The notes under the pieces were generated by a model. It saw nothing but the letters and a program-made list of their open reading frames with translations. It searched no databases and was not told where the DNA came from. The translations under genes and the position numbers were made by a program. From an uncultured virus (IMG/VR IMGVR_UViG_3300020197_000011) (Duplodnaviria > Heunggongvirae > Uroviricota > Caudoviricetes), in IMG/VR virus record IMGVR_UViG_3300020197_000011: a stretch of 64,000 nucleotides of DNA. The stretch is one strand, 5' to 3'. The first letter of the stretch is position 1. Each line of letters starts with the position of its first letter. Shown here one piece after another: positions 4,809 through 32,948 of the stretch.

Positions 4809-5773
4809 ATTTTCTTCCAGGTGGTAAATTTAAGTTTTGCTTCTAATCCAGAATAAGTATTTAATTCTATCATGGACTTAACATCAAGTCCAGATAAAAC
4901 CATATCATTAATATCCTTTTCTTTTATACTAGAGGGCCAGATGACGATTCTTTCTCCTCGATCAATGGTACGAGCAATGCGGGAGACAATTTCGGCGTTA
5001 CGTGGTTCGTTATCATAGATCCAAACAGGATTGCTAATCCCCCACTTACCAAGATCACCGTCAGCTCCACAAAGAGCAATCGCGTTTGAAATGAATGTAG
5101 AGTCAAATGGCCCTTCTGTGACATATACCGTGCTTGTCTTGTCGATTTCATCGAGTCCATAAATTTTAGGTGCCTCCTCATCAAGCATGATAGTAATATA
5201 TTTAACCTTGCTAGGGCCTAGAGATCTCCCCTGATAACCCACAAATTCATTTTGATAGATCAATGGAATAATAATCCTTGGTTCATCATACTCCACGTTA
5301 TCAAAAGTATGAACTAATGAATTAGTCCATGCTTTAAATTTATCCACATAATAAAATTTATCTGGATTTAATTTTCTCTTAGTTAAATATGAACTTGCTA
5401 TTGGATTTGTTGATGCTTTAGGTAGATCAATTTTACATTTAAACTTTGGTGCTTCAAATTTAAAGACTGGTTCTGTAGTGACAAAATTTTTACCAAAGTG
5501 TCCTTCTTTAAACTTTTCAAAGATATATTGCTTATATGTTTCAGAATCAATTTGCTTTAAGAAGTTATTCAGAGAAATATTAACACCACAATTATGACAC
5601 TTAAAGTTGGTATTATTTTTGACAGAATAAAAGTATCCTCTGGCCTTGTTCTTATTCTTTTGAGAATCTCCACAAATTGGACAACGGCAGTTATAAAGAT
5701 TGGTTTTAATCTTTTTAAACTTTTGTAGTCGAACTGATACTAGATTGATGTATTTAACATCAACATAATCCAT
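4805..5773 (-). CDS. gp61: DNA primase
   Basis: Zn ribbon CPICGDS...CHNCG, TOPRIM VTEGPFDS, KDINDM. Confidence 0.96.
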   Translation of the reverse strand: MDYVDVKYINLVSVRLQKFKKIKTNLYNCRCPICGDSQKNKNKARGYFYSVKNNTNFKCHNCGVNISLNNFLKQIDSETYKQYIFEKFKEGHFGKNFVTTEPVFKFEAPKFKCKIDLPKASTNPIASSYLTKRKLNPDKFYYVDKFKAWTNSLVHTFDNVEYDEPRIIIPLIYQNEFVGYQGRSLGPSKVKYITIMLDEEAPKIYGLDEIDKTSTVYVTEGPFDSTFISNAIALCGADGDLGKWGISNPVWIYDNEPRNAEIVSRIARTIDRGERIVIWPSSIKEKDINDMVLSGLDVKSMIELNTYSGLEAKLKFTTWKKI

Positions 5774-5941: not shown

Positions 5942-6355
5942 TTATTTTATTTGCTCTGTTCTAACGGGTTGTGGATTGGGAGTTAAGAAATCAACAACAA
6001 TTGCTGACTGAGAAACAACAAATGACATAATAATTGCTGCTCCTACAAGTATCCAACGAAACTTTACAAATTCTTCTAACTTCGATTCTATCTTTTCAAT
6101 TCTATGTGTTACTACTTCATGTTGTTCTCTGTTCTCATCTCTCAGTTCATCTAACACTCTACCAATCATATCATCAGCTTTGTTACACTGTTCAATTTTT
6201 TCTTCGTGAACAGCAAGCATCTTGCTGATGTTTTGACTGGTTTTCCCCATTAATTGAATTGCCTCGTCTATTTTTTTCATCATAAGTTCATATGAAGAAA
6301 GACGTTCTTCTAATACGGCAATTTTAGTGTCAGATGAGGTGTTTTGATTGAACAT
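5942..6355 (-). CDS. coiled-coil protein with a C-terminal transmembrane helix
   Basis: Heptad-rich region followed by WILVGAAIIMSFVVS. Confidence 0.75.
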   Translation of the reverse strand: MFNQNTSSDTKIAVLEERLSSYELMMKKIDEAIQLMGKTSQNISKMLAVHEEKIEQCNKADDMIGRVLDELRDENREQHEVVTHRIEKIESKLEEFVKFRWILVGAAIIMSFVVSQSAIVVDFLTPNPQPVRTEQIK

Positions 6356-19867: not shown

Positions 19868-20308
19868 TCATTCGGTTTCTACTGCCTTACCTTTTTTGCC
19901 AATGTTATACTTTTGCTCAAGAATCCAATCTCCCTTATCCTTATAAGAAAGAACTTTAATCTGATTAAGTGGAGCAATATCAGCGATCGAATCTTGTTTA
20001 ACAACAGTAATCAATCCCCAGTCAGCTAACAAACGGGTGATACGATTACGACGCTGAACATCATTGATTGTAAGGTTTGCGTGCTTACCGTCCAGGGCAA
20101 ACAGTTCCTTAAAGTGAACAAGGTAATATCTACCTTGCTTATGAAGGATGTGGCAACTTTGATAGAGTTTTTTCTCCTTCCTTGATGCAACTCCGATACG
20201 AGTTAAAGTCTCACGAACTTTTAAGAAGTCATCTGGTTCGTTCAAAAGAACTTCAACCATCATATCAGGATTCCAATTTACTTGGGGTTCAATTGTTTGA
20301 GTAGTCAT
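19868..20308 (-). CDS. regA: translational repressor RegA
   Basis: DDFLKVRETLTRIG...LYQSCHILHKQGRYY.VHFKE. Confidence 0.97.
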   Translation of the reverse strand: MTTQTIEPQVNWNPDMMVEVLLNEPDDFLKVRETLTRIGVASRKEKKLYQSCHILHKQGRYYLVHFKELFALDGKHANLTINDVQRRNRITRLLADWGLITVVKQDSIADIAPLNQIKVLSYKDKGDWILEQKYNIGKKGKAVETE

Positions 20309-20679
20309 TTTGTTCCGCCAGTTTCAAGTCGTTGTTTAATAAAATCAAGTTGTGATTTCGTAAGAATCTTCAAAGCTTGAGATGCTTTTTCATTACTATA
20401 ACCATAGTATTGTTTAACGCATTCTAAATCTTTGACTTTATCTTTTCGGATCCAAGGAGAAAATCTCTTTCGTTTCCTCAGAGTATTTATATAAAACGAA
20501 TATTGCATGTCTTTGTCAAGAGAAGAATGAATATTCATCTCATTTGCAAAAAGAATACAATCAATGTGTCCAGACAAACAACGATTGACAATATAAGGAG
20601 GATAAGATTTAATATCCTCGGATAAATCTTCTTTTGTGAAGTTAATAGAATTTAACCAATCTTTAAGTTCGTAAGTCAT
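20305..20679 (-). CDS. gp62: clamp loader small subunit
   Basis: LNSIN.TK...YPPYIVNRCLS...ANEMN...YYGYS; located directly upstream of regA. Confidence 0.93.
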   Translation of the reverse strand: MTYELKDWLNSINFTKEDLSEDIKSYPPYIVNRCLSGHIDCILFANEMNIHSSLDKDMQYSFYINTLRKRKRFSPWIRKDKVKDLECVKQYYGYSNEKASQALKILTKSQLDFIKQRLETGGTK

Positions 20680-20680
20680 C
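20632..20680. repeat. 49-bp perfect direct repeat, copy 1 (gp62 codons 1-16)
   Basis: ttttgtgaagttaatagaatttaaccaatctttaagttcgtaagtcatc, identical to 21260-21308. Confidence 0.97.
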
Positions 20681-20682
20681 TC

Positions 20683-21243
20683 TTATTTAGCCTTCAAGAC
20701 ACATACAAATAGGTATCTAATTTGATCATTTACAGTTATTGGACTAGAAGCATGAAAAGTATCTGCACTGTAGAGAATCACTCTTCCTGGATTATATTGA
20801 ACTGCAAGTTCACATTCTCCAGACTTATTTGCAAATAAAGTTTCACCATGCCAATTTTGATCCCAGTGATGATTTACATAATATGATAAAATCGTACATC
20901 CAGGCCAAACATTATCAGTATGAAAAACATGTCCTGATAGTGTTGGAGTAGATGCTAAAAACCAACTTTCTTTGATTTCAACATCATCACCAATGTGTTC
21001 TTTAACAATCATTTGCACATTTTCATTTTCAAATATACCAAATTTATTTACTTTTTCTTCGTTTAGATTAGATTTCAAATAATGTTGGAAATTATGCGAA
21101 AAAGGAGATGATGTAATCTTATTGATCATGTAAGTTGATTTATGAGAAAAAACCATATGGTTTTCTCTCTCAACTGCGGAAAAAACATCATCATATATGT
21201 GAACAATATTACCATCAGTTGTCGATAAACTTTTATATTTCAT
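20683..21243 (-). CDS. 2OG-Fe(II) oxygenase (prolyl-hydroxylase-like)
   Basis: HTD...W.GETLF...H...R jelly-roll motifs. Confidence 0.85.
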   Translation of the reverse strand: MKYKSLSTTDGNIVHIYDDVFSAVERENHMVFSHKSTYMINKITSSPFSHNFQHYLKSNLNEEKVNKFGIFENENVQMIVKEHIGDDVEIKESWFLASTPTLSGHVFHTDNVWPGCTILSYYVNHHWDQNWHGETLFANKSGECELAVQYNPGRVILYSADTFHASSPITVNDQIRYLFVCVLKAK

Positions 21244-21244
21244 A

Positions 21245-21307
21245 TTACCAACCTTTGGGTTTTGTGAAGTTAATAGAATTTAACCAATCTTTAAGTTCGT
21301 AAGTCAT
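21245..21307 (-). pseudogene. truncated duplicate of the gp62 5' end (20-aa relay ORF)
   Basis: MTYELKDWLNSINFTK+PKGW*; ATGA overlap with the upstream stop; its TAA is 1 nt before the next ATG. Confidence 0.85.
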
Positions 21308-21308
21308 C
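21260..21308. repeat. 49-bp perfect direct repeat, copy 2
   Basis: Identical to 20632-20680. Confidence 0.97.
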
Positions 21309-22410
21309 GGATAATTTGAATCTCATCATCATCTGTCCACAACTCGACTTTGTTGCGGAACCTACCTTCTTCTTTGAGTTTTTCATATCTCTTAGTTGCT
21401 TTCTTTTTCCACCAAGAGATAATGTTCTCAAGATAAAACTTATCCCAATTTTGTCCTCTGCGAAGTTCTGCTTGCTCACCAAGGATCACTTCACGAACAT
21501 TTTCATACCCATAGTCTGAGATATAAAATCTCTTTTTTTGAGTTAAAGAAAACGCAGCATCAATAACAGAGTTAAACTCATCAAGTTTATCTTTATCTTG
21601 CAACGAGTTTTTGATAATTGAAATCATCTTTGTCTGTCGCTTCATTTTCTTAGAAGAAGCTTTATTATCTGTGAGTGGAGTGTTGTTATTTAGATATGTA
21701 AAACGATCGTGAAGTTTATGAAAAACATCATCATGAAGCAATGGAAGAAACTTACTTTCGGTGAGTCCCTTGTATCTCATGAAAGGTTTCAAACCATCAT
21801 ACTGAGATGCATCTGTAGTAGAACCATAGAGTGATGTCGTTTCGAACAAAGCAATTTCTTTTTGAAATGACTCATTTAACACTTCTCGCGCATAATGTGA
21901 GCAGCAAAAAAGTGCAAGCAATTTACCACCAAGATAGTTATAACCGAAAGGTTGAGAAGGAACAATCACAAATCCCATCGCAGCATGACGATTGAAGACA
22001 GTAAGATCTGGTTGCTTTCCCAACCAAAGATTACGTGGTTTAGAATTAATTGTTGGCGATCCAAAGCGAATAAACCCAACTACTTTGTTAGTTGTCTCCT
22101 CATAGATTACCCACTTAAGTTCTCTGCCAGGAATATTTTGTTCGTTGTTATGAGAAGAAACTGCCATCAAAAGATTTGTATAAAACTTTTGATCAAGGCC
22201 ACCCCTCCCAACACGAACGATCTTAAACTTCATGTCCTCAGGATGAATATCTTCATTAAAGAACTCATCATGAAGAGGAAGTAAAGAAGATTCTGATCTT
22301 ATAACTTCCTTTTTAACAAATCGAAGATAATCTTCAATATTTCTCATGTTAGAGAAATAATCAATAAACTCATCTGCAGCCCAAACTGCGTCACTTTTAC
22401 TAATAATCAT
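21304..22410 (-). CDS. DUF4338/DruA-like protein
   Basis: IPGRELKW...GFIRFGSP...IVPSQPFGYNYLGGKLLAL...TTSLYG...SQY resembles DUF4338 motifs. Confidence 0.65.
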   Translation of the reverse strand: MIISKSDAVWAADEFIDYFSNMRNIEDYLRFVKKEVIRSESSLLPLHDEFFNEDIHPEDMKFKIVRVGRGGLDQKFYTNLLMAVSSHNNEQNIPGRELKWVIYEETTNKVVGFIRFGSPTINSKPRNLWLGKQPDLTVFNRHAAMGFVIVPSQPFGYNYLGGKLLALFCCSHYAREVLNESFQKEIALFETTSLYGSTTDASQYDGLKPFMRYKGLTESKFLPLLHDDVFHKLHDRFTYLNNNTPLTDNKASSKKMKRQTKMISIIKNSLQDKDKLDEFNSVIDAAFSLTQKKRFYISDYGYENVREVILGEQAELRRGQNWDKFYLENIISWWKKKATKRYEKLKEEGRFRNKVELWTDDDEIQIIR

Positions 22411-22955
22411 CGTTTATACATTGGGATACTAATACTTAACCTATCGGTTAGTGGTTCAAAAAGGTGATACTGCAAAGAAGGTATGAATATTGAATTTCCT
22501 GGTTCAAGGATAACTTGTTCTTTAATACTTAGATATTCATTTATATTTGCCCATCCAGAGAAATCACCAAATTCATTATAAACTGTAACTTTGGATTTGC
22601 CAATGCATTGAACAATTAAATTATCACGATTATCGGCATGAACTGAAAAAGAACGACTACCATACTTTCCCATGTAGATATGTGACTGAGCATCTACATT
22701 ATGATCTCTCTCAATTTCTTCAATCAATTGTCGGACATTTGGAGTTACACAACTTCCATGAACAATGAATGAATAACAATTTTCCCAGAAAGATCTTAAC
22801 TTGTCCATATCATGACGTTTTTCCCAAGAAGTTGTTATGATGTAATTTTCTGGGGGAATTTTTTCACCAGTTCCTGGATGAATTAATTGAACCACATCAT
22901 CAGTTACATAAGTGGTTTCAATAAAATACCAAATCTCATGAAAAGTAATAATCAT
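22407..22955 (-). CDS. JmjC/cupin-family oxygenase
   Basis: SFSVHADNRDNLIVQC.GK...LEPG.SIFIP...H...RLSIS. Confidence 0.85.
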   Translation of the reverse strand: MIITFHEIWYFIETTYVTDDVVQLIHPGTGEKIPPENYIITTSWEKRHDMDKLRSFWENCYSFIVHGSCVTPNVRQLIEEIERDHNVDAQSHIYMGKYGSRSFSVHADNRDNLIVQCIGKSKVTVYNEFGDFSGWANINEYLSIKEQVILEPGNSIFIPSLQYHLFEPLTDRLSISIPMYKR

Positions 22956-23896
22956 TTGAACTCACACTCTGCCATAATTTCAGTCAACGCTGCTAGGAGG
23001 TTAATTTCCTGATCAGCAACGAACGCAATTTGGTATTGATACTTAGCAATAACAAGAACGGCAGCGGGAATAGTGGAGGGTACAAGATTATCATACAAGG
23101 CGTCATAAACCCTGCGAAGAATGACAGAAGAATCGTTGTCCAAGTTGGATACCACCCACTTTCGTACCTCTGTGAAGTTTTTATCTTTGAGACATTTAAT
23201 GAGATCATTTATCGAAATATCAGAGAAAGTTGCAAGAATTCCAGAATCAATTTTACCGCCAGTTGAATAACGTTGACATTCATTCAAAACTCGACGCCAA
23301 TCTGGGAAATGAGAATTAATGAGTTGAGCAAGAACCTTTGGATCATATTCAATACCTTCAGCATCTAAAATATCTTGTAGGCGCTTGAAGAAAGATCCTG
23401 CTAGTTTGGCTTTTTCTTTTCCTTTGATTGAGAAATCAATAACCGCACAACGAGAGTGAAGAGGTTCAATGATTTTGTTCTTATAATTGCAGGTAAAAAT
23501 AAAGCGGCAGTTATTATAAAATGCCTCTATGTTTGCCCGCAACAGAAGTTGTACATCGTTTCCTGTATTGTCTGCCTCATCAATGATGATGACTTTATGT
23601 TTAGAAGATCCTGTAAGTGAAACTGTCGAAGCAAAATTCTTTGCTTGATTTCTCACAGTATCTAGAAAACGTCCTTCATCAGATCCGTTGATGACATAGC
23701 AATCTGCACCCAACTCATTGCAAAGTGCCTTAGCAATTGTAGTTTTACCAACACCAGGAGGGCCAGCAAGAAGGAGGTTTGGAATCTCCCCCCTCACAAC
23801 AAACTCTTTGAATGTTTTTTTAGTATCATCAGGGAGAATACAATCATCAATTACTTGAGGACGATACTTTTCCACAAAAAGAAATTCACTTGCCAT
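22952..23896 (-). CDS. gp44: clamp loader large subunit
   Basis: EKYRP, GPPGVGKTT, IIDEAD, PLHSRC. Confidence 0.97.
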   Translation of the reverse strand: MASEFLFVEKYRPQVIDDCILPDDTKKTFKEFVVRGEIPNLLLAGPPGVGKTTIAKALCNELGADCYVINGSDEGRFLDTVRNQAKNFASTVSLTGSSKHKVIIIDEADNTGNDVQLLLRANIEAFYNNCRFIFTCNYKNKIIEPLHSRCAVIDFSIKGKEKAKLAGSFFKRLQDILDAEGIEYDPKVLAQLINSHFPDWRRVLNECQRYSTGGKIDSGILATFSDISINDLIKCLKDKNFTEVRKWVVSNLDNDSSVILRRVYDALYDNLVPSTIPAAVLVIAKYQYQIAFVADQEINLLAALTEIMAECEFK

Positions 23897-23899
23897 AAT

Positions 23900-24412
23900 T
23901 TAGTTTACCCAGTCAGGTTTTCGTTGCGGCATACGAAGATAATTAGATGCAACCCAAGGTTTGGATGCAATATACATCTTGTAAGCAGTAAAAGTGTCAA
24001 TGCTTTCGTCAAGTTTATACTCATTTGACATTGCTCGTGCAAAAGGAGTTACCTTAGTAATTTTACCCTTAGGAAAAATATAATATGCATGAATAAGAGT
24101 ATTATAGCACGAGTGCATTTTATTGTATCGCAAAAAATACTCATCGCACAAATTCATTCCCCATTTGATCAACCAATAGGCATTATCAATTGACTTTGCA
24201 GCCCATTGAGTGCATGGATGATTGCGAAAAGCACCCTTCTCAGTTGCATATGGAGTACCATCTGTTTTGGGAAGAGTGCCATAATTATGATACCATTTAG
24301 ATCCCACGATAGAAAGCATTTGACAGCACTCTAGTGGCATCTTAACGATATGTTTATCTGGTAAACAAATAGCCGATTCGGCAGGATAAGGATTAGTTAC
24401 GAAGATATTCAT
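23900..24412 (-). CDS. pyrimidine-dimer DNA glycosylase-like protein
   Basis: MNIFV...DKHIVKMPLECCQMLS...NHPCTQW...EY..RY.K.H. Confidence 0.8.
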   Translation of the reverse strand: MNIFVTNPYPAESAICLPDKHIVKMPLECCQMLSIVGSKWYHNYGTLPKTDGTPYATEKGAFRNHPCTQWAAKSIDNAYWLIKWGMNLCDEYFLRYNKMHSCYNTLIHAYYIFPKGKITKVTPFARAMSNEYKLDESIDTFTAYKMYIASKPWVASNYLRMPQRKPDWVN

Positions 24413-24981
24413 GTTACCAAGTCGGTATTAATGATAATTCTATTTTTATATTCTGCTGGAGAACATCCCGTATGCAAATAACTACCATCAAAAAATAAAA
24501 GTCTATTTTCTTTTGGTTTAATTTTTTGAACTATATTTAAAGATGAAAAGTCAATATTATTATAATATTGATTGCAACTAAAGCATTGTTTATCAAAAAG
24601 AATTGTTTCAGCATCCGAATCTGTAATATAAAAAACTGATGCAACATGAGGAAAATATTCATCAACATGTATTGTATGTTGATATTTTTCTGGAGAATAT
24701 GTTACCATATCAATTCTTGATTTTGATATTTGATTGCAATTAGTAACATCTAGTAATTGACTATAAAATCCCGTTAAAATTTGAAAAAGATAGCAATTAT
24801 TTGATTGATAATTTTCAATTATCCATTGATCAAATCCATAAGAATACAAAGTATCATTTGGATCATTTGGCCAAGTAATATCTTTTTTAAAATTCCAAGA
24901 AAAATTATAATCTTCAATAATTTCTTTTACCCTAGAAAAATATCTAGGAGATAAAAAGTTATCAATGACAACTGGTTTCAT
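24409..24981 (-). CDS. 2OG-Fe(II) oxygenase-like protein
   Basis: Start MKPVVIDNFL at 24981; HVD...PKENRLLFFDG..LH...R.IIN. Confidence 0.8.
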   Translation of the reverse strand: MKPVVIDNFLSPRYFSRVKEIIEDYNFSWNFKKDITWPNDPNDTLYSYGFDQWIIENYQSNNCYLFQILTGFYSQLLDVTNCNQISKSRIDMVTYSPEKYQHTIHVDEYFPHVASVFYITDSDAETILFDKQCFSCNQYYNNIDFSSLNIVQKIKPKENRLLFFDGSYLHTGCSPAEYKNRIIINTDLVT

Positions 24982-24982
24982 A

Positions 24983-25675
24983 TTATCCGAAAGTTGAATC
25001 AGGTTCAAGGGCGATATAATATTCAACATTATAATCGGTATTCTTGAACTTTGAAAGCAGTTTTTGTGAAACTACAACTTCATATGTACCAGGAAGAATT
25101 TTAATATTCTCTACTTTGAAATTAAACACAAACTCATCATTTGTTTCTCCCACCACGATAGAGAAATCATTAGAGGTATCGTTCTTTTTATCACGAACGA
25201 CAAGTTTTACTACACCTGCTTCACCAACCACAGACAAATCTGGAAGTTGATAAATTGCAGCAGCTTTTAGAAGTTTATCAAGTTCTTTAGTATCAAGAAG
25301 GAAACAAACATCTTCACTTGGAAGTGAGATGGACTTGTCAGGGGGAGTAACGATAACGTTAGGATCAGCAAAGAAATACTTTGATCGTGACTTACCTTCC
25401 TTGATCATAACATAACCATCATTAGCAAAATCAAGTTCTGCACTTTGATGAAGATTAAGTCCATTCAAAAATTGATTCAGATCGTAGATGCCAAAGTCTT
25501 TAGGCAGATCTTCTTCAATAGTTGCCTCCGCAAGAATATTCTTCATCACAGAAATAGTTCGAAGTTGTTTACCTTGCTTAAACAAAATTGACTGATTGAT
25601 AGAGGAAAAATTCTTCAGAACAGTCAGGGTTTTATCAGAGAGTTTCATAGTTTGAGGTTTGAGTTTCATGATCAA
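24983..25675 (-). CDS. gp45: sliding clamp
   Basis: MKLS..T..VLKNFSSINQSI, FGIYDLNQFL; the true start may be a downstream Met. Confidence 0.96.
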   Translation of the reverse strand: MIMKLKPQTMKLSDKTLTVLKNFSSINQSILFKQGKQLRTISVMKNILAEATIEEDLPKDFGIYDLNQFLNGLNLHQSAELDFANDGYVMIKEGKSRSKYFFADPNVIVTPPDKSISLPSEDVCFLLDTKELDKLLKAAAIYQLPDLSVVGEAGVVKLVVRDKKNDTSNDFSIVVGETNDEFVFNFKVENIKILPGTYEVVVSQKLLSKFKNTDYNVEYYIALEPDSTFG

Positions 25676-26091
25676 CGGAATTCAGAAAGGCCATTATCTT
25701 GGCGAGAATAATGTCCATCAAAGTGAAGCAGAAGCATAGCATAGTGAATCACTTTGAGCAAGTCGCGCTTGCTGCGTCCATCTTTATCACCATAACGACT
25801 GCCATACTTCAGGATGTTTGCCTGACAAAAACCAGGAGCAAGATCCTTTGCAGCCATCAGATCAATAGTCTGAATATCTTTATAGGTGTCATTATGTCCA
25901 CAATAGTGACTTCCATAAGTACTCGTTACATACACCTCAACATCTTTGAGGATTTTATCTTCGTTATATTTCCAAAGATGATTTTTAGATTCAGTCATAG
26001 TAACAGGTATTTTTGTAAGATTCAACATTCCTGTCTCAGAATTTTGAGACAGAGTAAATTCATAAGGATGTTCATCCATAACAAAAGTCAT
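25672..26091 (-). CDS. DUF3310-like protein
   Basis: TYGSHY...ANILKY.SRYG.KDG....DL.K..HYA. Confidence 0.75.
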   Translation of the reverse strand: MTFVMDEHPYEFTLSQNSETGMLNLTKIPVTMTESKNHLWKYNEDKILKDVEVYVTSTYGSHYCGHNDTYKDIQTIDLMAAKDLAPGFCQANILKYGSRYGDKDGRSKRDLLKVIHYAMLLLHFDGHYSRQDNGLSEFR

Positions 26092-26105
26092 AGTAATCTC
26101 ACTTA

Positions 26106-26134
26106 ATTATATCAGGAAAAGTTGTGTGAGTCAA
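26106..26134 (-). promoter_or_regulatory. sigma70-like early promoter for the gp45-44-62-regA operon
   Basis: TTGACT-17 nt-TATAAT with TGn extension. Confidence 0.75.
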
Positions 26135-27239
26135 GACACTCTTTTTGCTGCTCTTCAGTAGGAAGTTGAAAATCGGCATCAACTTTATCGTACAGTTCCA
26201 GGAATGACTGTTTAGTTTCATCATCAAAGCGATTCACACACACTTGAATTGCTTTTGCTTTGTCTTGGAAGATGCTGTAGGCACGGATGATATGAACCAG
26301 GCGACGGGTGCTGATGATTTCTTCAATACCACCATCGTAGAAGGTTTTACGGATGATGTCTGCCCAGTCAACCAGGCGCTTACAGAAGTCACGATCTTCC
26401 ACACCCAGATCCAAAGCAATACCTTCTAGGATCTTCTGCTCAACAGTAGGAGCAGGATAAGATTGCTCAAAGGTTACAGGAAAACGCTCAAGAAATGCTT
26501 CGTTAAGAACATTGGTTCCGATAAAGCGTCCATCATCAGAACCCTTACCCTTCGTGTTTGCGGTAGCAATCACATTGAAACCAGCAGCGGGTTTCACGAA
26601 CCTACCGATTTTTTTGAGAAAGACTCCTTTACCTTCAAGGATTGACTGAAGGCAAAGAATCTTGTTGGAAGCCAAGTCAATTTCGTCAAGCAGAAGAATC
26701 GCGCCGCGCTCCAAGGATTCGACGACTGGGCCATTATGCCAAGCAGTTTCACCGTTGACGAGACGGAATCCCCCAATAAGATCATCTTCATCAGTTTCAA
26801 TAGTAATATTTACACGGATGAGTTCACGCTTGAGTTGAGCACACGCTTGCTCCACACTGAACGTTTTACCATTACCCGACAAACCCGTGACGAACGTCGG
26901 ATAAAAAAGACGGGACTGAATAATTTTTTTAATATCGTTAAAGTTACCAAACTTGACGAAGGTATCATCTTTATCAGGAATAAGATTTTGTTCTACAGCT
27001 GGAAGAGCAGCAGGTGCCTGATAAGAACGTTCAATTTCTTGAACACGTTCTTGAGTCACTTGAAGATTCCAACGTCCACGCGAAGTTTTAAATTGATCGA
27101 GACGACGAGTCACAGTCTGATAATTGATTCCACGAGACGCACAGAAACCCTTCAGATCTCCAGAAGTAATTTCAGAACCATAAAGTTCTTGAATAGAAGC
27201 AATCAGTTGTTCGTCAGTCAAAGCAATTTTGCGAGGCAT
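26112..27239 (-). CDS. cobS: CobS/MoxR-like AAA+ ATPase
   Basis: GLSGNGKT, LLLDEID, TANTKG, NEAFLERF. Confidence 0.9.
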   Translation of the reverse strand: MPRKIALTDEQLIASIQELYGSEITSGDLKGFCASRGINYQTVTRRLDQFKTSRGRWNLQVTQERVQEIERSYQAPAALPAVEQNLIPDKDDTFVKFGNFNDIKKIIQSRLFYPTFVTGLSGNGKTFSVEQACAQLKRELIRVNITIETDEDDLIGGFRLVNGETAWHNGPVVESLERGAILLLDEIDLASNKILCLQSILEGKGVFLKKIGRFVKPAAGFNVIATANTKGKGSDDGRFIGTNVLNEAFLERFPVTFEQSYPAPTVEQKILEGIALDLGVEDRDFCKRLVDWADIIRKTFYDGGIEEIISTRRLVHIIRAYSIFQDKAKAIQVCVNRFDDETKQSFLELYDKVDADFQLPTEEQQKECLDSHNFS

Positions 27240-27280
27240 GATTTAGTTAGGTGGTTTTCTCAACAAAGCCATAATAGAAC

Positions 27281-27306
27281 AAAAAGAGGGATTTGAAACC
27301 CCTCTT
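27281..27306 (-). terminator. rho-independent terminator
   Basis: AAGAGGGG-TTTCAAA-TCCCTCTT followed by a T run. Confidence 0.65.
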
Positions 27307-27309
27307 GTG

Positions 27310-27495
27310 TCAGTTTGCCAACTGGTTCCGAAGTGTCTCCAAATATTCTTTACTAGCACAACGGCCTTTATATCCCGGATAATATCTTTCAACTATAGCA
27401 GGAACACCCATAGCAGTGATTGAACTTTGACACAACACCCAAACTTCTTTGGTGTCGTGCTTGACAACATGTTCAAGTGAAAATTTAGTTTTCAT
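27310..27495 (-). CDS. hypothetical protein (61 aa)
   Basis: Likely start MKTKFSLEHVV at 27495. Confidence 0.65.
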   Translation of the reverse strand: MKTKFSLEHVVKHDTKEVWVLCQSSITAMGVPAIVERYYPGYKGRCASKEYLETLRNQLAN

Positions 27496-28039
27496 AAGTA
27501 AATGTTTTATTTTTAACTTTAGTATCAAATTCACCAGTTCTACCTGGTTTCATTTTTCCAACTTTGACATTTTTACCTTTACCAGGCCAAGATGTCTTAG
27601 AAGTTCCTTTAAGAGTTGCACCACTCTTTGGTTTACGTTGAATCAATACCGAATCTTGATCATCTTTTGATGAACCTTTAACATTACGCTTATGCTTTAG
27701 TCCACCTTCAGTTCCAAGTTTCTGAATTGTTTTTTTAAATCTTTTCTTACCCATTTTACCAGAAGAAACTACATGTGATTTCTCACCAACTTTCTTCTCT
27801 TGTGGGGTTCCTGGATTTTCGGTGTAACGTCCAGAGACTTTTGTAGGCCCTGGAAGGCCTGCTCCTCTGATTCTTCTTTCTGTTCTAGCAGATCTTGCTT
27901 TATTTTCTTTTTTAGATTTATCTCCTCTTTGTCCAGAAAGAATTGCTGTTCCACCCTTTTCAGTCTTTCTCATTACACGAGTAAGAGAAGTCTCTTGAAT
28001 AGAATAACATTCTAACATAAATTCTTGAAAAGTCTTCAT
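27485..28039 (-). CDS. basic protein with a T4 internal-protein-type capsid-targeting leader
   Basis: N-terminus MKTFQEFMLE compared with T4 IPIII MKTYQEFIAE; highly basic body. Confidence 0.7.
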   Translation of the reverse strand: MKTFQEFMLECYSIQETSLTRVMRKTEKGGTAILSGQRGDKSKKENKARSARTERRIRGAGLPGPTKVSGRYTENPGTPQEKKVGEKSHVVSSGKMGKKRFKKTIQKLGTEGGLKHKRNVKGSSKDDQDSVLIQRKPKSGATLKGTSKTSWPGKGKNVKVGKMKPGRTGEFDTKVKNKTFTYEN

Positions 28040-28052
28040 GATACTTGTTCAA
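28025..28052. repeat. direct repeat (26/28 identical to 28582-28609) covering the gene start
   Basis: ttg(a/g)aaagtcttcatgatactt(g/a)ttcaa. Confidence 0.85.
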
Positions 28053-28121
28053 TATTTTCACAAATTATAAATTCTTTTCTTTTTGGTAAGGACATTTTCA
28101 ATCATTTAAGAGCTAAAATAT

Positions 28122-28535
28122 TTAGAATATAAGTTTGTCCGAATTCTCATAAGGATTTGGAAAATCATAATTCAAATCTGGATGTAAATGTTTGAATTTT
28201 AATTTATAAACTAAATCATCCCATAATTGTTTTTTTGTACAAGGAGTTTTAAACAGTAAAAGATATATTACTTTATATTTGTTAAGTGAATCTACAAGAA
28301 ATAGAAAAAATTTAGCAAATTTAACTAAATCAGTTTCATTTCTATCAAAAATTTCTATTCTTTTTGTTATAGTGGGATTTAAAATATTTTCTTCTTCATT
28401 TAGATCAACAAGTATTAACTCTACTAAAATTAGAACATTATCTTCTTGTTCTAAGGTTTTATAATTAAAATAATAATTGTAATAATGTTTTCTAGTTTTT
28501 AATGAAAATTTATAATTGGTTCTTTCTGTTCTCAT
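28122..28535 (-). CDS. very AT-rich hypothetical protein (insert)
   Basis: 137 aa, AAGGT SD, flanked by repeats. Confidence 0.55.
   Translation of the reverse strand: MRTERTNYKFSLKTRKHYYNYYFNYKTLEQEDNVLILVELILVDLNEEENILNPTITKRIEIFDRNETDLVKFAKFFLFLVDSLNKYKVIYLLLFKTPCTKKQLWDDLVYKLKFKHLHPDLNYDFPNPYENSDKLIF
28141..28163. repeat. 23-bp perfect direct repeat (with 28566-28588)
   Basis: gaattctcataaggatttggaaa. Confidence 0.9.
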
Positions 28536-28601
28536 AAATATTAACCTTAAAATATTAGTTCATTAGAATTCTCATAAGGATTTGGAAAGTCTTCATGATA
28601 C

Positions 28602-29630
28602 TTATTCAAATTCTCTTTTACGAGCTTCATCAACAAGTTTTACAAAGTCTTCTATATTATAGACAGAACCATTGTGTTTGACTGTTGTAACCCTCTGAGA
28701 TTTCTCTGTGTCGAACAGTTTGTTGACATAGAAGATTAATCTAGCCATTGTTCGTTTGTTTCCAGCTTGGATGTTTGTTGGTCTCTTGTGTAGAGTAATT
28801 TCCTGATCCATGAAAACTACTTGGCCATCTTTCCAGTTTTGTGTGTACACATATTTGTCCTGAAAGATTATTTTTTTAATTTCATTCAAGATCTTATCAC
28901 TTTCTTCTCGGGAGAGTCCAACAAATCCATCAAAAGTAAAACTCGGAATCTTCATTCCAGATAGGCCAGATGCAGTCTCAGTGTAAAGGGAAGTCTCCAT
29001 TCCGTCAAGAGGAACCATGTTGTAACGGAGCAAAGATGCCTGAATATCGTTAAGAGCAGGAGCCATTTCATTGTCAATCCACCTATGTTTTACCACAAGT
29101 TCTTTGATCATACTCTTCATGTCTGAACTCAAAGATTCATAGGCATCATGAGTACATAGAAACTGTGTTTGACTGTTCTCGGAATCACTCACACTTTTAA
29201 GGCCAATGACTCTTTGTGCATCCTCAAATGCACACTGATCACTGTGCCAATTTAGTTCTCCATTCTGGAACATTCCAGTAGGACGACCTTTATCTCCTTG
29301 TATGTAACTTACTACCGAAGTTGCCTTGTACATATCATCTTTCGCATATGCTTTTGTGACGTACATGAGGTGAACATATAGTTCCCTCCAATGTCTACCA
29401 GTGACTTTTTTTTCAGTCACTTTTTCATGCATCAAAGCCATACTAGGATCACCCCAAGAGCTCATACAATCATAGAGAGTTTTTGTTGGGATATTTTCGT
29501 CAAGAAAAACAATACACTGGGATGCACACAATCTACCCAATTCTAACAATTCTTCCTTGCAATTCCAATCAATGTCATAAACTTCAACACCAACTGAGGA
29601 GTCATAATTCTGTAATGATCTTGTCTTCAT
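28602..29630 (-). CDS. TauD/TfdA-family dioxygenase
   Basis: WHSD...TQF...AY..L...W.DG.VVFMD...LHKR. Confidence 0.88.
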   Translation of the reverse strand: MKTRSLQNYDSSVGVEVYDIDWNCKEELLELGRLCASQCIVFLDENIPTKTLYDCMSSWGDPSMALMHEKVTEKKVTGRHWRELYVHLMYVTKAYAKDDMYKATSVVSYIQGDKGRPTGMFQNGELNWHSDQCAFEDAQRVIGLKSVSDSENSQTQFLCTHDAYESLSSDMKSMIKELVVKHRWIDNEMAPALNDIQASLLRYNMVPLDGMETSLYTETASGLSGMKIPSFTFDGFVGLSREESDKILNEIKKIIFQDKYVYTQNWKDGQVVFMDQEITLHKRPTNIQAGNKRTMARLIFYVNKLFDTEKSQRVTTVKHNGSVYNIEDFVKLVDEARKREFE

Positions 29631-29640
29631 CTGCCTGAAC

Positions 29641-29703
29641 CTAACTCAAATCAATGATAGCTATTGGTGTTGAAAATAAATTTTGTATTTGAAGATTTTT
29701 CAT
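29641..29703 (-). pseudogene. 20-aa orphan 5' gene remnant/relay ORF between the TauD genes
   Basis: MKNLQIQNLFSTPIAIIDLS*; starts 1 nt after the upstream TAA; its stop overlaps the AGGT SD of the next gene. Confidence 0.55.
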
Positions 29704-29704
29704 G

Positions 29705-30772
29705 TTAAGATATTGCATAGTTGAAAATTTCTAGATCCAGATCTCGTTGTTTTTGGAATTCTTCTTGAAGAAATGGATTATACTTATCTTCAAGGAGTTT
29801 ATTGTAATCGAATTGAATTCGATATCCTAACCTATCTGGTGCGGATCCATTTTCAATAGATCGGTTATGTTGTGTGATACTATTATCAAATATTAAAAGA
29901 TCTGTATCACTTTGATATTTATGTTCATAAATGTACTCTTCCGTGAAGATTTCACTACTAATTTTAGTTAGTAACTTATCACTTTCCGACTTACTCATCC
30001 CTTTAATATGATCAATAGATATCACGGAATAGTGTAATCCTTTTATTCCACCTGGACTTTTAATGATTAGAGGGAATTCTGCATTGGCAGTTGAACACTG
30101 ATTTTGACGATAATACGATCTTTGTGTTTCATCATAATTCATCATTTTTTCTAAAAATAATCTATTTTTATCGTCATATGGTTTATGCGTGATTCTAAAA
30201 TTATTAACCAAAACCATTTCATCCAGTTCACTTTTAAATGACTCTGATTGTTTCTCGTACCAGTCCACAGTTGTACAAAATCCGGTAGAACTTCCAATCA
30301 TATTTTCTACTCCCATCAACGAAACTCCAGGAGTAAAAGCTAAGTTTGCACATTCATTGCTGTGCCAGTACAACTCACCATCCCCAAAAATTCCAATTGA
30401 TTCTCCATTGGAATTTTTTCGTGGAGTGATTTTAATCATTCCCGGACATTTTTTATCGACTTGCCAACGTCTGTTACTTAAAAGATCATGGCGATCAACA
30501 GAATCCAACAATCTTTTAGATAATAACTCTTTTATTGGTTTATTGTATTTTTTATATAACTGGAGAGGACGAACCCAACGGCTATCGCCCCACTTCATCA
30601 TTAAATTATAATAGGTGACATGATCTACTTTATTACCTCTAATAATAGTTACCAGAGATTCCAGATGGAGTTTGCCAATTTCCATCCACTCTTCGTCACT
30701 AATGGTATTAAGATCTACATCATCAATAAAAATTCCAAATCTACCTAATCCGGGAATTTTACTTACTTTCAT
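29705..30772 (-). CDS. TauD/TfdA-family dioxygenase (HxN variant)
   Basis: WHSNE...STGF...DLLIFDN..TQHNR. Confidence 0.85.
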   Translation of the reverse strand: MKVSKIPGLGRFGIFIDDVDLNTISDEEWMEIGKLHLESLVTIIRGNKVDHVTYYNLMMKWGDSRWVRPLQLYKKYNKPIKELLSKRLLDSVDRHDLLSNRRWQVDKKCPGMIKITPRKNSNGESIGIFGDGELYWHSNECANLAFTPGVSLMGVENMIGSSTGFCTTVDWYEKQSESFKSELDEMVLVNNFRITHKPYDDKNRLFLEKMMNYDETQRSYYRQNQCSTANAEFPLIIKSPGGIKGLHYSVISIDHIKGMSKSESDKLLTKISSEIFTEEYIYEHKYQSDTDLLIFDNSITQHNRSIENGSAPDRLGYRIQFDYNKLLEDKYNPFLQEEFQKQRDLDLEIFNYAIS

Positions 30773-30812
30773 TTACACTACCTAAGTCATGGATCTGATC
30801 TTAAAATATTTA

Positions 30813-32948
30813 TCAGGCAACAAGTTCTACAAATTCACCAAGAACTTTTTTATTGAGTTTTTTACTCTTCAAGCTTTTAGCAAATGCAGATTTAATTTGT
30901 GCCTTAGAAGCATCTTCACTAACATCAAATTCAGTTTCATTTCCTAAAGCAGTTGCAGAAATACCAAAGTATTTGTGATATCCAGAACTTTTGATGGAAA
31001 AAGTTTTTTCCTTTTTCCAAGATGCAATTGTTTGCTCACATTCTTTAAGAGAATCACCATAGTAACGACGAATAAATGTTCCCGCATCACGAGATTCAAG
31101 AACACGGATACCAATAAAATTTACTGAAGGAAAACGATCTCGAAGATTGCGAAGCAACACGTCACTGAAATTATACCACTCAACATTCAAAGAATAAGTA
31201 AAACCAGTTTTACGATCACGCAAAAAAGAATTATAAGGATTGATACCAATAGATCCAATATAAGGTTCAGATTCCCAACGACGTTGAACTTCTTTATGAT
31301 GCTTCAAAGGTGATGCTTCACCATCAGTAAGAATCACACACTGAACTTTTTGAAGTTTATTGTCTTGTTGAAACTTTGGCAAAATTTCATGCAAACAAAT
31401 AAGAGATTCATTCAAAGGAGTTCCAGAAAGACTCCACCCCAAAGGAGTAGAATACCGACTATAACATCCTCTCCTAAAAGATCTTGCAATTCTAAAGATA
31501 TTGATCATTTGTTCCTCAAGAGTTCTGGTATTCACTTTACTCGTCAAAATATTCATCAAAGAAAACCATTCGGGCATCGCAACAACTCCATCACGTTTTT
31601 CATATGGTTGCTTTGGCATGATGGCATTGTGATTTTCATCATAACGAACACGAGGATAATCGTAAGTAAATGCATAAACTTCGAACGGAATATTTACTTT
31701 CCTACAAAACCACACAAGGTTAAAGAGTTGCTTCACAGTATCAAGCATAACATCTTGCATAGATCCGCTCCAATCAAGAATAAAAATCAACCCATGATTT
31801 TTACCATCGGCAAGAGTAGTAACTTTTTTGAAAAGATCTTCGTTGTACTTATAGGTATGAAGTTTAGAGCAATCCAATACGCCAGTACGAGCAGTTGATG
31901 CACGAGCATAAGAATCTGCCGCCTTACGGCACTCAAACTCCTTTACCAAATAATTAACTTCTTTTTGTGCAGAATGTTTAAAATCACGATATTCCTGATC
32001 CGATTCTTCAAATGCATTAATAGAATTATATTCAGGATCATTGTACACATTCCAAGAAATTCGACAAGATTCGTGAACATCGAAGTTTTTAACAATCAAT
32101 GAGTCAATATCAATCTTAGGAATCTCAAGGTAAGTATTTTCATACCCGTTATTATTCACAAGCTCTTTGAGTGCTTCCTCAAGAGCTTCTATAGTTTTGA
32201 CTTCGGGATTATCAGTCTCACCACCCATAGAGATAGTTTGCTTTTCTTGCTCGGCAGTACCACCATAAGAATCAGTGTCACCAGGTTGCTCCTGCTGATC
32301 ATTTTCTCCAGACTGTTGATCATCCAAATCTGAGGATGATTCATTCGAAAATCCGGACTGATAATTGCGCGAATCCAATTCAATTTTTGTTTCTTCTTCT
32401 TTTTTCTTTTTGCAATAATTGTAAAGAACCTCTGCTGCTTCAAGAACTTCGGCAAAAGTTTCAGATTTATCAATCAAACTGATAATATCTTGTTCTTCTT
32501 GGTTGAATTTAAGGCTAAGAAAGTTTCCAATTTTAAAGTAAAGATTTGCACGATCTGCAAGATTCATCTCTTGCACATTTTCATTTTCTAGTTGAAAGAA
32601 ATCTTCTTCGGCAAGTTCCTTATAACCGTTAAAGAAAGTCTTCGCAAGTCCAGCATATCGACGCTTCATCAGTTTCTCAATACGAGCATCTTCCACTACA
32701 TTGACAAACTGCAGAGGAACTTTGCATTGCTCACTCCAATCTTCATCGGGAGTATACAGTGCATGTCCGACTTCATGTCCCACAAGAAGATCATAGACAG
32801 TATTGCTTGCCTTTTCCCACATCGGCAGAGTCAGTACACGAGTGTGAACATTGAACTGAGCAGTCTCACACTTCTTATGTTCAACCACAAGATCTTCAGT
32901 GGCAAGCAGACGAGCGAGTTGTCCTTTGACTTCTTGATTAACAGTCAT
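30813..32948 (-). CDS. CobT-like protein: metallopeptidase-like N-domain plus vWA domain
   Basis: HEVGH...NVVEDARIE; MIDAS LDWSGSM, GTPL, LTDGE; likely partner of the CobS-like ATPase. Confidence 0.88.
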   Translation of the reverse strand: MTVNQEVKGQLARLLATEDLVVEHKKCETAQFNVHTRVLTLPMWEKASNTVYDLLVGHEVGHALYTPDEDWSEQCKVPLQFVNVVEDARIEKLMKRRYAGLAKTFFNGYKELAEEDFFQLENENVQEMNLADRANLYFKIGNFLSLKFNQEEQDIISLIDKSETFAEVLEAAEVLYNYCKKKKEEETKIELDSRNYQSGFSNESSSDLDDQQSGENDQQEQPGDTDSYGGTAEQEKQTISMGGETDNPEVKTIEALEEALKELVNNNGYENTYLEIPKIDIDSLIVKNFDVHESCRISWNVYNDPEYNSINAFEESDQEYRDFKHSAQKEVNYLVKEFECRKAADSYARASTARTGVLDCSKLHTYKYNEDLFKKVTTLADGKNHGLIFILDWSGSMQDVMLDTVKQLFNLVWFCRKVNIPFEVYAFTYDYPRVRYDENHNAIMPKQPYEKRDGVVAMPEWFSLMNILTSKVNTRTLEEQMINIFRIARSFRRGCYSRYSTPLGWSLSGTPLNESLICLHEILPKFQQDNKLQKVQCVILTDGEASPLKHHKEVQRRWESEPYIGSIGINPYNSFLRDRKTGFTYSLNVEWYNFSDVLLRNLRDRFPSVNFIGIRVLESRDAGTFIRRYYGDSLKECEQTIASWKKEKTFSIKSSGYHKYFGISATALGNETEFDVSEDASKAQIKSAFAKSLKSKKLNKKVLGEFVELVA

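Follow-up and report, generated by a model that had tools for sequence, protein, structure and literature searches.

How do single accessory genes come to lie between the core genes of a lytic T4-like phage, and what remains at the joints? The question is raised by a 64,000-nucleotide stretch of an uncultured virus (IMG/VR record IMGVR_UViG_3300020197_000011; "the window" hereafter means this whole stretch), in whose replication module single genes sit beside short direct repeats. An earlier reading made from the letters alone (the original prediction) had listed four related signatures: a 49-bp duplication at the start of gp62, which encodes a clamp-loader subunit; a 26/28-bp duplication at the start of a gene whose product begins MKTFQ; a 10-bp match between two gene starts; and an orphan 20-codon open reading frame (ORF). 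It had proposed from them an integron-like, accordion-style accessory array with no integrase. Of the four signatures, we find two to be unmistakable duplications, a third borderline, and the fourth plausibly a gene stub; the duplications are probably scars of illegitimate, microhomology-mediated recombination, or of template switching in recombination-dependent replication, between co-infecting phages. The kind of event is known, the setting is new, and the locus preserves its traces well.

The longest duplication is a perfect 49-bp direct repeat, found by comparing the window with itself, whose copies lie 628 nt apart (Table 1). Its upstream copy belongs to a 20-codon mini-ORF whose ATG overlaps the TGA stop of a DruA-like gene (an ATGA overlap) and whose own stop is positioned 1 nt ahead of the ATG of the cargo, a 2-oxoglutarate (2OG)-Fe(II) oxygenase-like gene of 186 codons (2OG186). 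We fetched and mapped 80 viral contigs encoding gp62 relatives: 2OG186 is missing from 76 of these loci, and the exact window arrangement is present in 4 of the 80, all of the window's lineage (in one of them the cupin allele has only 74% protein identity). The 49-mer arrangement is found in four IMG/VR contigs from different metagenomes (L003/L184, L004, L005, and L185; the L004 record was recovered a second time, in the metagenome collection, as L186), and Logan unitigs run across the insert into both repeat copies in four runs. The DruA-like gene occurs in 17 other gp62 loci and directly abuts gp62 in 16 of them, where the 49-bp sequence is single-copy, as is the gp62 start in L006-L015, L033, and L055. 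In the remaining locus (L072), a different ORF of 177 residues lies between the two genes. 2OG186 itself is rare, with four homologues in a search of 5.8 billion proteins; isolate phages gave no tblastn match to the 2OG186 protein or to the 20-residue stub, and a metagenome scan with a 2OG186 alignment returned nothing beyond the window's own lineage. The DruA-like gene is common among cyanomyovirus relatives.

Within the window the two copies agree at 49 of 49 positions, whereas relatives diverge at synonymous sites beyond the first 24 nt of gp62; the perfect identity therefore favours a recent event, with both copies derived from one recipient. As a separate observation, the first 24 nt of gp62 (window 20656-20679) are invariant in 11 diverged relatives, and later synonymous sites vary. 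This suggests constraint on the gp62 start region, possibly, if we may speculate, as a translational operator.

The left joint of this insert also holds sequence that arrived with the cargo. An alignment-based scan recovered one diverged copy of 2OG186 (L187; 78% protein identity), which lies in an unrelated context and has a DUF6267 gene upstream. That upstream gene ends ...CACTATAACTTCACACTTCCCAAAGGTTGGTAAC before the ATG, and the window reads ...ATTAACTTCACAAAACCCAAAGGTTGGTAAT before the cargo ATG (in a shorter view of the joint, ...AACTTCACACTTCCCAAAGGTTGGTAAC and ...AACTTCACAAAACCCAAAGGTTGGTAAT, respectively, each preceding ATG), so that the mini-ORF tail CCCAAAGGTTGGTAA and the DUF6267 gene's 3' end are the same sequence. 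Because the two ends match, the last five codons of the mini-ORF (PKGW plus stop) represent the 3' end of the donor's upstream gene, and this tail entered with the cargo as its native ribosome-binding context. Furthermore, AACTTCACA is common to gp62 codons 13-15 and the donor gene and thus constitutes a 9-nt microhomology at the left joint. At the right joint (TAAGA/GATG) the overlap is 0-2 nt.

The second duplication lies at the start of the MKTFQ gene (MKTFQ184), where 26 of 28 positions are identical between copies that bracket the ORFan orf137. The 13 nt preceding the MKTFQ stub resemble the native 3' end of homologues of TauD342, the dioxygenase gene upstream (AAGTATCA), and the 28-bp unit is therefore a former TauD342-MKTFQ junction; orf137 thus seems to have entered later than TauD342. 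The relatives' MKTFQ allele ATGAAGACTTTCCA overlaps the orf137-like 3' end (GA.TTTCCAAATCC), which suggests a microhomology joint here too. No relative with an empty TauD342-MKTFQ junction was found, and we infer the single-copy target of the 28-bp case; orf137 has no relative in viral_contigs. At a larger scale, a cobT-like gene is followed directly by MKTFQ184 in L090, L102, L107, L139, and L140 (about 30 nt apart), as well as in L137 and L155, and TauD342, TauD355, and orf137 occur in none of 80 contigs with cobS relatives, so this lineage has gained the 2.65-kb block that runs from TauD355 to orf137 by insertion. MKTFQ184 (27485-28039) has a weak match to an S-adenosylmethionine lyase family (PF23780; 29.4 bits, cut-off 28).

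Homologues of TauD342 lie in unrelated contexts, and the 12 nt directly before its ATG, AGGTTCAGGCAG, recur in L168, L172, and L182 some 95 nt ahead of the ATG of the homologue, within the 3' part of the coding sequence of a conserved neighbour (by a rough estimate, a chance match would be expected a few times per thousand). TauD355 homologues occupy several junctions in T4-like contigs (L191-L237), between the major head and tail tube genes, between gp47-like and gp46-like genes, and after hsp20; the upstream regions of 25 TauD355 homologue loci hold nothing recognisable in common with the window. TauD355 and TauD342 are only about 25-30% identical, judged by cross-hits on each other's homologues, and are therefore distant paralogues rather than products of recent amplification, which speaks against the accordion element of the original prediction. 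Its description of the cargo as largely Fe/2OG oxygenases holds, with two TauD-family genes, one JmjC/cupin gene, and two 2OG-FeII_Oxy_3 matches that are weak and fall below the Pfam cut-off. Some TauD355 homologues in L191-L237 have their own promoter-like and Shine-Dalgarno (SD)-like leader.

The orphan 20-codon ORF between the TauD genes is present as described. A pattern search with NLFSTPIAI matched two viral contigs, about the chance expectation, and one of the two matches looks random; the other (L238) falls at the very start of a 195-residue ORF, MQINNLFSTPIAIS..., that belongs to 2OG-FeII_Oxy_5 (PF13759; E 3.1e-15). Two further PF13759 genes in the fetched loci (L080, L158) start M(x8-9)[VI]FSTP[VL]. 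A 25-residue stub has no Pfam match; PF13759 covers only the C-terminal 100 residues. With moderate confidence, nine of the residues being forced by the pattern, we take the orphan as a probable 5' stub of a 2OG-FeII_Oxy_5 gene truncated on TauD342 entry; no intact copy follows it, and the event would therefore be a replacement rather than a duplication. Beyond TauD355, relatives have the start ATGAAGACTTT (MKTFQ) at the position where the window has the two-codon ATGACTTAG, which is possibly, at a guess, a relic of the former downstream start codon.

Scars of the same type, in mirror image, occur in relatives. In L089, a perfect 28-nt duplication comprising the denV 3' end, ATT, and ATGAA brackets an ORF of 105 residues, whose C terminus (KPEWV before the stop) resembles that of denV because the denV end has been duplicated. 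Duplications of the gp44 3' end plus ATGA, 21 nt in L044 (the same contig as L150) and 20 nt in L082, bracket ORFs of 174 and 194 residues; the two are unrelated, and both end in ECEFK before the stop, like gp44. The same gp44-like ECEFK tail is found on a second ORF in L070 and L007. In total, a second copy of the gp44 C-terminus motif is present in 5 of 98 loci with the motif, i.e., in four distinct contigs, each with different cargo. Homologues of the L044 cargo (L147, L040, L143/L144) end in NRVECKL or NRIKFDLK before the stop, which may be read as older, diverged gp44-like tails. The proposal that single genes enter with duplications of variable length thus stands as regards insertion and duplication at junctions, and "gene starts" was too narrow, since relatives duplicate 3' ends.

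Neither clear duplication is attributable to chance. A blastn-short self-comparison of the 64 kb returned only three short direct-repeat matches at E<0.05, all from the 49-bp and MKTFQ/orf137 events, and three exact repeats of at least 18 nt were observed within 3 kb against a mean of 0.03 in 30 second-order Markov shuffles. For a wider view we used 232 loci (1.82 Mb) with duplicates of the window lineage removed, and considered repeats of up to 60 nt with a spacing of 150-5000 nt. Among 64 distinct short repeat pairs, 31 have both copies no more than 30 nt from a gene boundary, compared with 3.5 +/- 1.8 on random relocation (1000 trials, highest value 10). The sites themselves are highly variable: in the gp44-gp62 interval (L003-L082), 63 loci show 35 arrangements of 33 ORF families, and gp44 abuts gp62 in three. 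Few of these families have Pfam names (DruA-like, Dam-type methyltransferase, JmjC/cupin, PurS, and 2OG oxygenases). Summed over contigs of at least 90% similarity, the depth in four lake runs is 8-20 on the insert and hundreds to thousands in the flanking bins. This fits an insert confined to a minority lineage; the unitigs, with k=31, are too short to bridge the 49-bp repeat. Unitig joints (e.g., a skip of 1374) were disregarded, their sides being 23-24 nt at 90% likeness. Separately, an exact 18-mer is common to the 2OG gene (21013-21030) and the cobT-like gene (32571-32588), 11.5 kb apart, and encodes ENENVQ in both; about 0.13 repeats of at least 18 nt are expected window-wide.

What can be seen directly is the duplications with their empty sites, the tail derived from the donor, the microhomology of 9 nt, and, in relatives, the mirror-image scars; the recombination that we favour would connect them as follows. 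A donor segment would consist of one gene together with ribosome-binding context from the last codons of the donor's upstream gene, and would be joined into the recipient close to a gene junction, with the left joint among the opening codons of the downstream gene and the right joint just upstream of where that gene starts. Since the recipient joints overlap, the junction would be duplicated (49 bp at gp62, 28 bp at MKTFQ). Selection, with no dedicated enzyme, would then retain survivors that keep the flanking genes intact and the cargo translatable. The leftover gene head would persist as a short reading frame ending beside the cargo start, and a dispensable downstream gene would leave only a stub, as at the orphan ORF. 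The agents are likely to be the general recombination proteins encoded in the window: UvsX, UvsY, the UvsW-like, gp46/47-like, and EndoVII-like proteins, and the polymerase. Which type of event took place, the insertion of one patch or an unequal crossover, is likewise a matter of inference, as is any relay role for the mini-ORFs; two near-identical co-infecting phages may have undergone a single unequal crossover.

Several observations weigh against this reading. By eye, most or many of the 31 boundary pairs are regulatory (late-promoter-like leaders, stem-loop arrays, and tRNAs), and only about five events are copies of coding junctions (two in the window, L089, L044, and L082). In a crude test for repeats of at least 18 nt that bracket one ORF, 5 of 2131 ORFs and 9 of 6407 control pairs scored, i.e., no clear enrichment, with a flawed control in that i+/-2 pairs bracket genes too. 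Legible scars are rare, and most accessory genes have none. L187, at 78% protein identity and in a different context, is a stand-in for the real donor (a closer homologue, P0001, has 89% identity), and the perfect 49/49 identity fits ongoing conversion as well as a recent event. The recombinase search covers the 64-kb window, which is part of the genome, and one encoded elsewhere is possible. Finally, four different cargo genes have nearly the same gp44 tail duplicated, which is more regular than random joints predict. This recurrence may reflect a need to keep the next gene's initiation region inside the gp44 end, or homology-driven exchange, and it is the observation least well explained by passive scars.

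Homology-driven exchange could take the form of cassette shuffling by mini-circles like those of promoter-early stem-loop (PeSL) elements, in which the duplicated junction copies recombine, release the cargo with one copy, and the circle re-enters the same junction in related phages by UvsX-type recombination. For strand exchange, homologies of 20-28 nt are short. We consider this origin unlikely, even though direct repeats of 20-49 bp do bracket single genes, the same gp44 tail surrounds different cargo in four contigs, and the insert is restricted to one lineage with relatives of at least 90% flank similarity far more abundant in the same lake runs. PeSL mini-circles were demonstrated by inverse polymerase chain reaction in RB49/phi1 (PMC2839356), and stem-loop or promoter-like repeats flank inserts in L014, L018, L019, L022, L060, L068, L139, and L140. 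However, circles leave the origin of the first duplication unexplained, the donor-derived tail and microhomology point to an illegitimate joint, and the window cassettes have no repeat in common. The PeSL mechanism, the T4-type analogue that comes nearest, could act secondarily, on junctions already duplicated. A doubtful extension of this idea is that T4-like cyanophages exchange single accessory genes without a dedicated recombinase, with duplicated junctions serving as portable homology for small-circle excision and re-entry and leftover heads and tails as relay frames in a translationally coupled operon; if true, the junction duplication would be a functional part of the cassette and not a passive scar.

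The duplications might also have arisen as by-products when double-strand breaks, cut at these junctions by the free-standing homing endonucleases of co-infecting phages, were repaired aberrantly. The insert directly after gp44 in L082 (3114-3698), with its 20-nt tail duplication, matches HNH endonuclease families (phrog_953; E 1.2e-68), and the 177-residue ORF of L072 (4465-4998) has a GIY-YIG-like motif, seen only by eye. However, the L072 ORF has no Pfam match at E<=0.001 and matches only PHROGs of unknown function, and neither the window inserts nor the rest of the 64 kb yielded a nuclease. We consider this account quite unlikely; such cleavage is a possible trigger for the recombination that we favour rather than an alternative to it. 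It is very unlikely that a dedicated recombinase encoded outside the window drives a true integron-like or transposon-like system. The single-gene units do cluster like an array, and the rest of the genome lies beyond the search, but we found no attC-like hairpins or common cassette ends, no repeat common to different cassettes in the window self-comparison, and duplications of varying length (perhaps 10, then 20, 21, 28, and 49 nt), each copying its local target. Searches with Pfam and PHROGs, in agreement with the absence of an integrase noted originally, found no integrase, transposase, reverse transcriptase, or homing endonuclease in the 64-kb window and no mobility gene among its inserts, and the examined inserts of relatives contain neither integrase nor transposase. 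Insert ends have no terminator-like hairpins, the only minus-strand terminator-like sites near the region being at the regA-hsp20 and orf61-cobS junctions, and no terminal inverted repeats were noticed, these not having been searched for directly. The integron-like interpretation is not supported by these results. Chance similarity or an assembly artefact is refuted for the 49-bp and 28-bp repeats by the four contigs, the unitigs reaching both copies, and the shuffles, and is hardly credible for the whole, the 10-nt match being one that alone could be chance.

Among known systems, the illegitimate recombination model of phage mosaicism (Hendrix and colleagues) has random joints filtered by selection until gene boundaries remain. 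The present case is alike in its non-homologous joints surviving at gene boundaries after selection, and unlike it in that the joints are still visible as duplications, donor relics, and microhomology, not merely inferred. Integron cassettes are likewise arrays of single-gene units with their own translation signals, but IntI, attI, and attC were not found here, and the duplication copies the target, not a cassette-borne site. The pattern also matches insertion with long target duplication, reportedly described by Nobusato et al. in 2000. Furuta, Abe and Kobayashi described it in 2010 for bacterial restriction-modification genes (PMC2853133). Those cases and ours agree in an insert missing from related genomes, flanking direct repeats that align to a single-copy target and often overlap gene ends, duplications that are long and variable (45-47 bp in several of its cases, 49 bp here), and an insert without transposase or integrase. 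They differ in that its cases concern restriction-modification genes in bacterial chromosomes, whereas ours concern oxygenases and ORFans in a lytic T4-like phage, with the donor-gene microhomology resolved and the leftover gene head forming a short frame beside the cargo. The 49-bp case exceeds the >30 bp used there (PMC2853133); the 28-bp, 20-21-bp, and 10-bp cases fall short.

PeSL cassettes and mini-circles (Arbiol 2010, PMC2839356; Comeau 2014, PMC4122927) likewise concern T4-type phages, with single ORFs in hyperplastic regions between direct repeats, no dedicated recombinase, and insertion, deletion, and replacement among close relatives. There, one conserved regulatory motif recurs throughout the variable regions, whereas here each junction has private copies of coding sequence without stem-loop or promoter. 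No PeSL-type bracketing motif was found in the window; such repeats occur in relatives at the regA-hsp20 and gp46-cobT junctions. PeSLs were judged unlikely for cyanophage S-PM2 by Puxty 2015 (PMC4503421). An insert encoding a free-standing homing endonuclease (seg/mob type) is seen in L082 and not in the window. Duplications of coding junctions in cyanomyoviruses were nowhere described in the literature that we searched, which comprised open-access papers and bioRxiv preprints.

The gain of accessory and host-like genes by lytic phages is mostly inferred from mosaic boundaries, and here the joints are legible. For the hypervariable junctions of the T4-type replication module they provide a concrete and testable account of how genes are gained, with scars in lake and marine relatives, and they show that cargo travels with translation signals hidden in the last codons of the previous gene. 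No new mobility machine is revealed.

The two remaining signatures are weaker. The 10-bp ATGATTATTA is indeed common to the cupin start (22946-22955) and the start next to it, now assigned to the DruA-like gene (22401-22410); its excess over chance is only borderline, since two of the 2628 gene-start pairs, and one of the 72 adjacent ones, have at least 10 nt in common, ATGA begins 36 of 73 genes, and p is roughly 0.03-0.05 for an adjacent pair. A cupin-less empty site between gp44 and the DruA-like gene occurs in L009, L033, and L055. AGGT, proposed as an SD sequence marking four accessory starts, is present at -11/-12 before the ATGs at 21243, 28535, 29630, and 30772, and these are four of the only five AGGT-bearing genes among 73, a set that was chosen post hoc. 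Given the L187 tail and the AGGTTCAGGCAG match, the AGGT motifs are ribosome-binding context within donor upstream coding sequence. A role of AGGT in recombination was rejected; two of the motifs are donor coding sequence that acts as a ribosome-binding site.

Table 1. Features at the accessory-gene junctions (window positions)
Feature	Position	Strand	Match or remark
JmjC/cupin accessory gene between gp44 and the DruA-like gene	22407..22955	-	
DruA-like accessory gene, 368 aa	21304..22410	-	PF14236 (Druantia DruA domain), E 4.2e-10
Upstream 49-bp copy: 1 nt upstream plus first 48 nt of gp62	21260..21308	-	100% identical to 20632-20680
20-codon mini-ORF MTYELKDWLNSINFTKPKGW plus stop; gp62 head fused to 3' end of donor upstream gene	21245..21307	-	
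2OG186, cargo; 2OG-Fe(II) oxygenase-like, 186 aa	20683..21243	-	PF13640, E 2.3e-4, below Pfam cut-off
Downstream 49-bp copy, true start of intact gp62 (20305-20679, PF16790)	20632..20680	-	
Two-codon mini-ORF ATGACTTAG (ATG ACT, stop TAG) after cobT-like stop	30782..30790	-	
TauD355, TauD-family dioxygenase, 355 aa, accessory insert	29705..30772	-	PF02668
20-codon orphan ORF MKNLQIQNLFSTPIAIIDLS plus stop	29641..29703	-	Probable 5' stub of 2OG-FeII_Oxy_5 gene
TauD342, TauD-family dioxygenase, 342 aa, accessory insert	28602..29630	-	PF02668
Upstream 28-bp junction copy: 13 nt of TauD342 3' end plus first 15 nt of MKTFQ184	28582..28609	-	
Relic of orf137-like 3' end, ahead of orf137	28547..28588	-	36/42 identical to 28122-28163; translation compared
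orf137, cargo; ORFan	28122..28535	-	No Pfam or PHROG match
MKTFQ184 gene, with downstream 28-bp copy 28025-28052	27485..28052	-	Weak S-adenosylmethionine lyase family match

The window belongs to a T4-like freshwater cyanomyovirus, and all 73 ORFs (called crudely, one start being adjusted manually) are on the minus strand. Pfam and PHROGs assign its proteins to a T4-type replication and virion module that includes ribonucleotide reductase, primase, a gp41-like helicase, UvsX, DNA polymerase, RegA, the gp62 and gp44 clamp loader, and the gp45 clamp, together with CobS/CobT-like and gp46/47-like proteins, a late sigma factor, a UvsW-like helicase, UvsY, and capsid, portal, sheath, and terminase genes. 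Among isolates, Synechococcus and Prochlorococcus myoviruses come nearest, with a nucleotide identity of about 73-83% in conserved genes only; across the studied region isolate phages include no close relative, the best reaching about 77-83% in conserved genes. All 20 public runs containing the region are labelled lake water metagenome, and one record (G001) is an 11-kb copy of it.

Repeats of other kinds were seen in the relatives. L139 (1-1272) and L140 (2226-3254) carry, between gp46-like and cobT-like genes, a tandem duplication, 97-99% identical, of a 606-633-nt unit. The unit consists of a small gene, an ATAAATA-type leader, and a terminator-like hairpin, and its duplication is a recent tandem amplification. 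In L014, L018, L019, L022, L060, and L068, an insert of about 1.1-1.2 kb between regA and hsp20 is flanked by arrays whose 36-48-nt repeats consist of a short stem-loop (TTAGTATTCA...); these are PeSL-like regulatory repeats in cyanomyoviruses. Elsewhere in the window, two adjacent minus-strand ORFs separated by 168 nt (4805-5773, 322 aa; 5942-6355, 137 aa) match, respectively, the C-terminal and N-terminal parts of the primase-associated phrog_451, the larger additionally matching the DNA primase phrog_47, and the pair looks like a split or interrupted gp61-type primase.

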